Below are positions 1-3,000 of a stretch of 40,324 nucleotides of DNA, one piece after another. The position numbers were made by a program. Numbering within the stretch: position 1 is the stretch's first letter; each line of letters opens with the position of its first letter. Origin of the DNA: a virus. Taxonomy: Duplodnaviria; Heunggongvirae; Uroviricota; Caudoviricetes. The DNA lies in IMG/VR virus record IMGVR_UViG_2872169409_000001, one strand, 5' to 3'.

Positions 1-3000
1 ATCACTACCTCCAAAGCATGAGTGAGATGACAACGTAACATTGATTGGAGATTAACAATAGATTGCTGATGTAAAAGATATGTATAAGCTTCGCTTTCAA
101 AGTGGAGGCTCTGGTAGTGGCATCCAGTGGGTTACATTGCTAATCAGACCATATTCATTAGTTTGAGGATGGTTGCCGTTATCGTCTCCGTATTTAAGAC
201 TCTCCATAAAACCATAATGCTTATTCCCATTAACGCTCACAAAGCCGTAATAAGCTGGTATAACGCCGATCTCACACGTAATCAGCAAAGGAAAACTAGT
301 TCTCCAATTTAGCTCGCCGATTACAGGCATTCTCTCACTACAGCTTATCCAACTATCCTGAGTTACCGGAGAGTTGCGCATTGCGACCTTGGATTTGCCC
401 CTATATTTCCAGACATCTGTTATCACTTAACCCATTACAAGCCCGCTGCCGCAGATATTCCCGTGGCGAGCGATAACCCAGCGCACTATGCGGATGCCAT
501 TCGTTATAATGCTCGAACGCCTCTGCAAGGTTCTTTGCTGCCGTTAACCCGTCTGGTTTGGGCATGATACTGATGTAGTCACGCTTTATCGTTTTCACGA
601 AGCTCTCTGCTATTCCGTTACTCTCCGGACTCCGCACCGCCGTGTTCTTCGGTTCAAGTCCCAACATCCGGGCGAACTGGCGTGTTTCATTAGCCCGGTA
701 GCATGAACCATTATCCGTCAGCCACTCCACTGGAGACGACGGAAGATCGTTGCCGAAGCGGCGTTCCACCGCTCCCAGCATGACGTCCTGTACTGTTTCA
801 CTGTTGAAGCCGCCGGTAGTCACCGCCCAGTGCAGTGCCTCACGATCACAGCAGTCCAGCGCGAACGTGACACGCAGTCTCTCTCCGTTATCACAGCAGA
901 ACTCGAACCCGTCAGAGCACCATCGCTGATTGCTTTCTTTCACGGCCACTCTGCCTGTATGTGCCCGTTTCGATGGCGGTACAGCAGGTTTTCGCTCAAG
1001 CAACAGCGCATTCTGGCGCATGAGCCGGTAAACACGTTTGGCATTGATCGCAGGCATACCATCAAGTTCTGCCTGTCTGCGAAGCAGCGCCCATACCCGA
1101 CGATAACCATACGTGGGCAGCTCTCCGATAACATGGTGTATACGGAGAAGCACATCCGTATCATCAGTGTGACGACTGCGGCGGCCATCCATCCAGTCAT
1201 CGGTTCGTCTGAGAATGACGTGCAACTGCGCACGCGACACCCGGAGACAACGGCTGACTAAGCTTACTCCCCATCCCCGGGCAATAAGGGCGCGTGCGCT
1301 ATCCACTTTTTTGCCCGTCCATATTCAACGGCTTCTTTGAGGAGTTCATTTTCCATCGTTTTCTTGCCGAGCAGGCGCTGGAGTTCTTTAATCTGCTTCA
1401 TGGCGGCAGCAAGTTCAGAGGCAGGAACAACCTGTTCTCCGGCGGCCACAGCAGTAAGACTTCCTTCCTGGTATTGCTTACGCCAGAGAAATAACTGGCT
1501 GGCTGCTACACCATGTTGCCGGGCAACGAGGGAGACCGTCATCCCCGGTTCAAAGCTCTGCTGAACAATTGCGATCTTTTCCTGTGTGGTACGCCGTCTG
1601 CGTTTCTCCGGCCCTAAGACATCAATCATCTGTTCTCCAATGACTAGTCTAAAAACTAGTATTAAGACTATCACTTAAATAAGTGATACTGGTTGTCTGG
1701 AGATTCAGGGGGCCAGTCTAGACCTTTAATGCCTCATAGAAGCAACCTTTCAGATTGTTGAACTGACGCCCATTTAGCAGGCCGTGTTCAGTCAGCATGT
1801 TGTGTAATTTCCATGCCGCGTCGTTTACTTCGCTGGATGACAGGGGAGGCAACTTGTAAGTTTGGCTTACAGTTTCGGCACCATGAAGCATGGCGTCGCT
1901 CCGCTCTATGCCATCCAGCGCGATTCGCAGTGCCTGAATTGTGGTAGAGCTATCGTTTGGGGCTATTCCATATCGCTCGAATACAGCTAAATGGTTGCGC
2001 ATAATCTCAGGCGTAAGCTCTTTGTAAGCATAAGCAAGAGGCTCTGATGCATTATCCGGCACAACCGACGCAGGCGCGGCAGCATAAACAGGAATAACGT
2101 CCGCTTGCTCTTTATTGCTTTCATCCGTTAAAGCCCAGAATAATTTCCCGGCAGGATGTTTGAAAATATAAGCAACTGGTTCTGCTTCCAGCGATGCCAG
2201 AGCAATTCGTGCCAGTTCTTCCGCTTCTTCTGCTGGCAGTTCAACGTTGCTACCAGGTCCGTATGTTTCGCGCCACTGCTTGATTGTCAGTAGTCGCTCT
2301 TTGGTCATAGTGGTCATATCACTCTCCTTTGATGCGAAAGCCAGCTGCGCTTGCTGATTCTTCATATGCGCGTTTAGCAGCGTTAAGGATTGCTGCCAGT
2401 GGCGTATAGCCGCCATCCATTCGGATTGTGTTGTGGATGCCAGCCATTGTGTTGCGCAATTTTCTGTGGCTAGCAGACAGTTCTGCTATGCGCTTCTCTG
2501 CGGCTTCCAGCTTCTCGCGCATATCGTCAACGTACTCGACCAGAGAACCGCCAGCAGGAATTTCGCACTCCTCGACCAGTTGGAAGTAGATATCAGCTGC
2601 GGCCCGTGTGTTGCTATGCCTAGCGTCGCCCATCTCACCTTCACGAAGAGCATCGCGTTCGGCGGTAAGATTGGCTATTTTGCTGTCTTTGCCTTCCAGC
2701 TCAACGCGCAGCTTCCCTACCGTTAGCGCAATTTCCTCGTTCTCCTGATCGCGGCGTTTTATGTATTGCTGGTTTCTTTCCAGCTCATCCAGCAGTGCCA
2801 GCACGGTAGCTGGACTGGCTGCGGCGATGAATTCAGCATTGGCCTGCTGTTCCATTTGGAAATCTTCATCGAAACCGCTTTCAGGATGCGCTCCTTCAAT
2901 TCTGCAAATGGGAATATATCCAGCAGCCTCGCGATGAATTAGGGCATCATCACCATCAAATCGGCTCTCTCCATATTCGAGCGACCACTCACCACACGTT

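Follow-up and report, generated by a model that had tools for sequence, protein, structure and literature searches.

An intact IS2 element interrupts a DUF551 accessory gene of an Sf6-like prophage in Shigella flexneri

A full-length copy of the insertion sequence IS2 interrupts an accessory gene of the prophage contained in the window, by which we mean the whole stretch of 40,324 nucleotides that was analyzed (IMG/VR record IMGVR_UViG_2872169409_000001). With very little room for doubt, and with no observation speaking against it, this arrangement is the product of a single, simple transposition by which IS2 entered an accessory gene of 294 aa, at codon 199/200, within an Sf6-like prophage of S. 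flexneri 61-4982. The reading draws on the identity and intactness of the element, its target-site duplication, a natural empty site, the restored gene, the host and a junction shared between assemblies. The element is a known one, behaving in a known manner within a published genome, and nothing about it is mechanistically new. Its import hardly goes beyond annotation, and it is a further case of a Shigella prophage decaying through an IS.

The IS2 element and its target duplication

The element, its ends, its coding sequences and the flanking duplication occupy these positions in the window:

385..389, no strand: target-site duplication, left copy, GACCT
390..1720, minus strand: IS2, full length, 1331 bp, with IRL at the 1720 end and IRR at the 390 end
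390..430, minus strand: IRR, 41 bp, the transferred strand ending ...GGGGCAAATCCA-3' (CA-3'), from the alignment of both IS ends
401..1306, minus strand: orfB (insD), 301 codons, with HTH_21, rve and rve_3 domains (DDE integrase core); I95L relative to K-12
1264..1629, minus strand: orfA (insC), 121 aa from ATG, with an HTH_Tnp_1 domain; identical to K-12 InsC1
1306..1312, minus strand: A6G slippery site, A-AAA-AAG in the orfA zero frame, where a -1 frameshift would yield the OrfAB transposase
1679..1720, minus strand: IRL, 42 bp, TAGACTGGCCCCCTGAATCTCC..., ending in TA and with an extra base pair at position 9
1721..1725, no strand: target-site duplication, right copy, GACCT

An earlier sequence-only reading of the window had described an intact 1331-bp IS2 with both inverted repeats, orfA and orfB, and the A6G frameshift motif, and this description is borne out by the coordinates, the open reading frames and comparison with reference IS2. 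The segment 390-1720 starts with TGGATTTGCCCC (IRR) and ends with ...GGGGGCCAGTCTA, the reverse complement of IRL TAGACTGGCCCCC. In its plus-strand reading the segment runs from TGGATTTGCCCCTATATTTCCAGACA to ...TCTGGAGATTCAGGGGGCCAGTCTA, and the minus-strand reading starts with TAGACTGGCCCCCTGAATCTCCAGACA. When the two ends are aligned (IRL TAGACTGGCCCCC... with IRR TGGATTTG-CCCC...) they form imperfect, asymmetric repeats of 42 and 41 bp with a single-base alignment gap at position 9, the IRL terminating in TA and the IRR in CA-3'. Asymmetric inverted repeats, an IRL that ends in TA and carries an extra base pair at position 9, and an IRR that ends in CA-3' are the published defining features of IS2 (PMC3219604).

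The GACCT copies that had been reported on both sides of the element match perfectly upon re-inspection, and by script check the match at the IS2 ends is exactly 5 bp long, failing at every length from 6 to 11 bp. A 5-bp match at both exact ends of an IS would arise by chance about once in 1024 cases, a figure that is made irrelevant by the existence of a natural empty site with a single GACCT (described below). IS2A of Escherichia coli K-12 likewise has a 5-bp duplication on its two sides, ATTAC, so a duplication of this length is the expected footprint of IS2. A repeat search of the window found no further IS or long repeat.

Both orfA and orfB are open in the ORF list, and they overlap in a -1 relation. 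Pfam recognized PF01527 in OrfA (70.2 bits), and PF00665 (67.8 bits), PF13683 (66.5 bits) and PF13276 (43.9 bits) in OrfB. Megablast with positions 390-1720 gave matches in 4,851 of 5,426 complete E. coli genomes, the best of them at 99.8% identity over 100% of the length and annotated as 'IS3-like element IS2 family transposase'. With IS2A of K-12 MG1655 (NC_000913.3 381260-382590; IS3 family, IS2 group, insC1/insD1) as the reference, 1324 of 1331 bases are identical (99.5%), the difference amounting to 7 substitutions and 0 indels. Three of the substitutions lie in or adjoin the IRL (IS positions 32 and 42 within it, and 43, window 1678, just inside), one is silent in orfA, and three are in orfB, where only the one giving I95L alters the protein. 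The window copy thus resembles IS2A in its 1331-bp length, its asymmetric 42/41-bp inverted repeats, the overlap of orfA and orfB with A6G, and the 5-bp target duplication; it differs by the seven point differences and by its location in a prophage gene. Every sequence-level feature that defines IS2 is present. The copy is apparently functional and may still be active, a reading tempered by the three changes in the IRL region.

The interrupted gene

The two parts of the interrupted gene flank the element and its duplication:

97..384, minus strand: 3' part, native codons 200-294 followed by the stop (97-99), containing the whole DUF551 domain
1721..2317, minus strand: 5' part, native codons 1-199 (MTTMTKERLL...FYEALKV), with an AAGGAG Shine-Dalgarno sequence before ATG 2317

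The 5' part reads to ...TTA AAG GTC and is stopped at once by TAG, the first three bases of the IS2 IRL (1720..1718). As such, the truncated 199-aa product consists only of native residues, without a foreign tail. Deleting 390-1725, that is, the element and one copy of GACCT, brings the 5' ORF and 389..100 into one reading frame of 294 codons from ATG 2317. The proposal that one gene had been split in frame, to be rejoined as a 295-aa protein, is correct as to the single reading frame, while the length is 294 aa. The ead/Ea22-like gene at 2319-3239 ends one base ahead of ATG 2317. A longer restored frame of 984 nt is open from ATG 2416 (327 aa), but this start would make the gene overlap the upstream ead/Ea22 gene by 98 nt. 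It is also disfavored because ATG 2317 has the AAGGAG sequence and gives 294 aa, the length of the closest homologue.

An uninterrupted allele exists in nature. In E. coli 2017.15.01CC (NZ_AP021890.1) the 1164-bp restored sequence is found at full length with 5 substitutions, and this empty site has a single GACCT and an open frame. The search with the reconstructed protein that had been proposed as a check retrieved, from the protein database, a 294-aa 'DUF551 domain-containing protein' (P0001) with 98% identity over 100% of the query, colinear across the junction. In total, 7,625 relatives were found at E<=1e-20; six full-length relatives align without gaps across the junction (...FYEALKV|AMRN...), and Stx phages carry full-length relatives with 55-63% identity. 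Because of the empty site, the 98% homologue and the gap-free alignment through the junction, positions 1721-2317 and 97-384 are to be regarded as one gene. In annotation they should accordingly be given as a single IS-disrupted DUF551 pseudogene, and the 1331 bp between the two GACCT copies as IS2.

The C-terminal end of the restored protein, previously called DUF551-like, does match that family: PF04448 is recognized at residues 210-293 with 43.4 bits against a cutoff of 22, spanning model positions 1-67 of 68. Since the domain starts at residue 210, IS2 lies in the linker just upstream of it. We know of no DUF551 family member with a demonstrated biochemical function. DUF551 accessory proteins of lambdoid and P22-like phages, such as the Ea22 V2 variant of Stx phages and YfdS of CPS-53, share with the restored protein the C-terminal PF04448, the location in the exo-xis/ea region and an adjoining Ead/Ea22 gene; unlike them, the protein restored here has 200 N-terminal residues that match no Pfam family. 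The DUF551 domain has been described as portable and mosaic (PMC10834534).

Directly past the insertion there is an ATG (M201) with AAGG 5 nt upstream, from which the gene caller gives a 94-aa DUF551 product. One may speculate that the orphaned DUF551 fragment would be translatable from M201 if it were transcribed.

A separate annotation problem is apparent in NZ_AP021890.1 (L001 4097-4981), for which RefSeq gives a 77-aa DUF551 CDS and a partial pseudogene in spite of the open 294-codon ORF. This splitting of an intact ORF is likely an annotation error.

Junctions in other assemblies

By exact look-up, the 199-aa truncated product was found on 18 public contigs. The junction from the gene through GACCT into IRL (...AAAGGTC|TAGACTGGCCCCCTG...) is identical in the alignment of five independent assemblies, namely the complete genome CP026792.1, the draft AGRC01000012.1 and three Logan short-read assemblies. 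The Logan contigs end 20-30 bp into IS2, which is normal behavior of short reads at a repeat, and the draft extends about 600 bp into the element. At the left (IRR) junction the witnesses are the window and the complete genome CP026792.1, and when the 94-aa DUF551 product from downstream of the insertion was looked up exactly, only the complete genome was returned, giving no independent support for this side. Queries of 301 bp over each IS2 junction gave no place with at least 80% coverage in the 5,426 complete E. coli genomes (Shigella not included), and a comparison of window positions 1-4000 with E. coli returned no record with the interrupted arrangement.

The insertion is real. With its junction in at least five independent assemblies and its truncated product on 18 contigs, it is fixed in a Shigella lineage and not private to one strain, and the shared junction could serve to mark the lineage of this S. 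flexneri clone. The sequence-only reading had called the transposition recent. That holds only in the sense that the target duplication and the IS2 have not decayed, the former being perfect and the latter having intact ORFs; as a private new event it does not hold, for the insertion is shared and lineage-fixed.

A second IS2 is found in the same chromosome, within the usher gene yraJ (L005 11288-12600, CP026792.1). It is inverted relative to the window IS2 and has a 2-bp deletion in orfB and 2 substitutions. The two copies are separated by about 3.1 kb (3,067 bp), the second being located about 3.0 kb beyond window position 1, and the interval between them contains the DUF551 fragment, eag, torI, attR, yraI' and the start of yraJ.

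Repeats of this kind, two copies so close together on one chromosome, are a classic source of misjoins, and IS2 is highly repeated, holding a median of 4 places per IS2-bearing E. coli genome and up to 41. A multicopy IS2 misplaced or collapsed into the prophage during assembly is nevertheless barely conceivable here. The 5-bp duplication is perfect at the exact IS ends, the flanks are colinear with the natural empty site, and the right junction recurs in the complete genome, in AGRC01000012.1 and in the three Logan assemblies that end inside IRL. Moreover, the neighboring IS2 can be told apart by its deletion and its two substitutions. The duplication, the empty site and the independent junctions exclude misassembly for practical purposes.

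The same pair of inverted copies around a segment of about 3.1 kb could also bring to mind a composite arm or a product of IS2-IS2 recombination, for example a segment inverted or transposed between the window IS2 and the one in yraJ. This origin is extremely improbable, as the window IS2 has its own matching target duplication and lies between two halves of one gene that are properly ordered and oriented; an inversion between the copies would have moved the two GACCT sequences apart, and the gene halves likewise. The yraJ copy is, in addition, frameshifted. A simple transposition remains the preferred explanation.

The prophage, its host and its attachment site

The window is a P22/Sf6-like prophage (Lederbergvirus) with mosaic similarity of 95-98% to Sf101, IME10, HZ41 and Sf6. 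It has the P22-like gene order with the tailspike-oac-int-attP-torI module. Positions 37219-39832 are 99.9% identical to Sf6 15500-18113, with Int identical at the amino-acid level. From core to core the prophage measures about 40.4 kb with IS2 and about 39.1 kb without it, compared with 39,043 bp for Sf6.

The presence of IS2 had been taken to suggest an Escherichia or Shigella host, and the host is indeed Shigella: window positions 1-8317 are 100% identical to CP026792.1, the chromosome of Shigella flexneri 61-4982, serotype 4b, USA (PMC9455713), in which the window is placed at about 839535-879858.

The interrupted gene had also been described as an early gene, and its surroundings agree. 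It is found at the distal end of the leftward early operon, flanked by ead/Ea22 and eag; in relatives, eag and then torI/xis directly follow its counterpart. Its minus-strand neighbors are ead/Ea22, Lar, DUF2737, the anti-RecBCD protein Abc2, a 3'-5' exonuclease, SSB and a Rad52-like annealase. These neighbors constitute the leftward early operon, of which the interrupted gene is the penultimate accessory gene.

An IS3-family element within a related S. flexneri Lederbergvirus has a precedent in Sf6, the record of which (39,043 bp) lists IS911. The phage was not destroyed in that case. IS911 is a different IS, and it lies in the Nin region (PMC3630932) of the rightward operon, whereas the IS2 described here lies in the leftward operon, in its ea region. 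Sf6 is furthermore a viable virion genome, while the prophage in the window is a putatively viable one.

Scans of the window for tRNA genes and Rfam families found nothing, and the absence of a tRNA from the window removes the attachment site that would have been expected, the published Sf6 site being tRNA-argW (PMC3630932). The flanks of the prophage are instead yraH/yraI, and its integration site lies within yraI, which encodes a fimbrial chaperone. The attachment junctions are as follows:

39825-39832 of the window: right att junction
8903-8911 of L005 (CP026792.1), just outside the window: left att junction

In a four-way alignment, with E. coli yraI and Sf6 attP set beside the two prophage junctions, a reciprocal crossover falls in a shared 8-bp core, CCCCTGCA. 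Another candidate for the core, CAGGGGATT, was ruled out by the same alignment. The integrase is identical to Sf6 IntS, and at least three NCBI assemblies have the same yraH-int-oac' adjacency.

Several minor features of the early region were noted as well. A Lar-like ORF (88 aa, PF14354; window 3034-3300, minus strand) overlaps the 5' end of the ead/Ea22-like ORF. The latter (2319-3239, minus strand) has 306 aa from a GTG start, although its true start is uncertain, and public gene calls for the 2319-3300 region differ, some giving Lar (77 aa) and Ead (242 aa) and others a single Ead of 306 aa. At 6637-7659, on the minus strand, there is a gene 33-like ORF, also annotated 'TolA', with degenerate internal repeats of 27-37 nt. 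These repeats are GCTTC-rich on the plus strand and hence Glu/Ala/Lys-rich on the coding strand.

Proposed insertion pathway and consequences

The route by which the element would have arrived can be outlined from the published biochemistry of IS2, an IS3-family element that moves by copy-out/paste-in through a figure-of-eight and a minicircle (PMC3219604, PMC3299598). Low-level -1 frameshifting at A6G would produce OrfAB, after which IRR would be cleaved and joined beside IRL to form the figure-of-eight. Replication would then release a minicircle, in which the abutted ends would form a strong promoter, Pjunc. Both IS2 ends would attack the target with a 5-bp stagger, whose repair would duplicate GACCT. 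As a result of the insertion the full-length DUF551 protein is lost: the gene now consists of an N-terminal part, from which the 199-aa product can still be made, and a DUF551 fragment left orphaned. A lineage of S. flexneri has inherited the insertion. A polar effect on the downstream eag may have accompanied it.

Since the interrupted gene is non-essential, the insertion most likely represents neutral decay in a resident prophage, one in which oac is being lost as well. Selection for the insertion would be a different matter: polarity, or the outward -35 of IRR, could alter expression of the DUF551 fragment, eag and torI, and so lock in or tame a serotype-converting prophage. Fixation in the lineage is compatible with this, the IS2 IRR does have an outward-reading -35 that is used in the minicircle junction promoter (PMC3219604), and the 94-aa DUF551 product is called from M201 and its AAGG directly past the insertion. 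However, the promoter scan revealed no sigma-70-like site directed outward from IRR on the minus strand, and promoter and terminator counts over positions 1-2600 were not above those of shuffled sequence. Additionally, torI has its own annotated promoters in this phage family (Sf6 record). Drift in clonal Shigella, rich in IS expansion and gene decay, predicts fixation equally, and the oac nonsense codon together with the tailspike split in some isolates (below) points to general decay. Taken together, selection is unlikely. An elaboration of the same idea, in which IS2 at the linker before DUF551 rewires the DUF551 fragment, eag and torI and, with the yraI site, helps to immobilize the serotype-converting prophage, is very unlikely. 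An adaptive or regulatory role may exist, but nothing supports one specifically, and neutral decay is the reading we retain.

Other decay in the prophage

The prophage is decaying, as the nonsense codon in oac makes plain. The oac gene (window 37343-38344, minus strand) carries W194* (TGG>TAG), a single coding-strand G>A at window 37763, which splits it into ORFs of 193 and 136 aa; it is otherwise 99.9% identical to Sf6 oac. At least 24 public contigs (41 index blocks) carry exactly this 193-aa product, from which it follows that the W194* allele is fixed in a lineage. Serotype 4b, under which the strain is listed, should require a functional oac.

Some assemblies with the truncated oac have a tailspike gene that the gene calls divide into ORFs of 317 and 323 aa, in place of a single one of 623 aa. 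These assemblies (L017-L019) are Logan contigs related to window 35390-37309, and the split suggests further prophage decay in part of the lineage.
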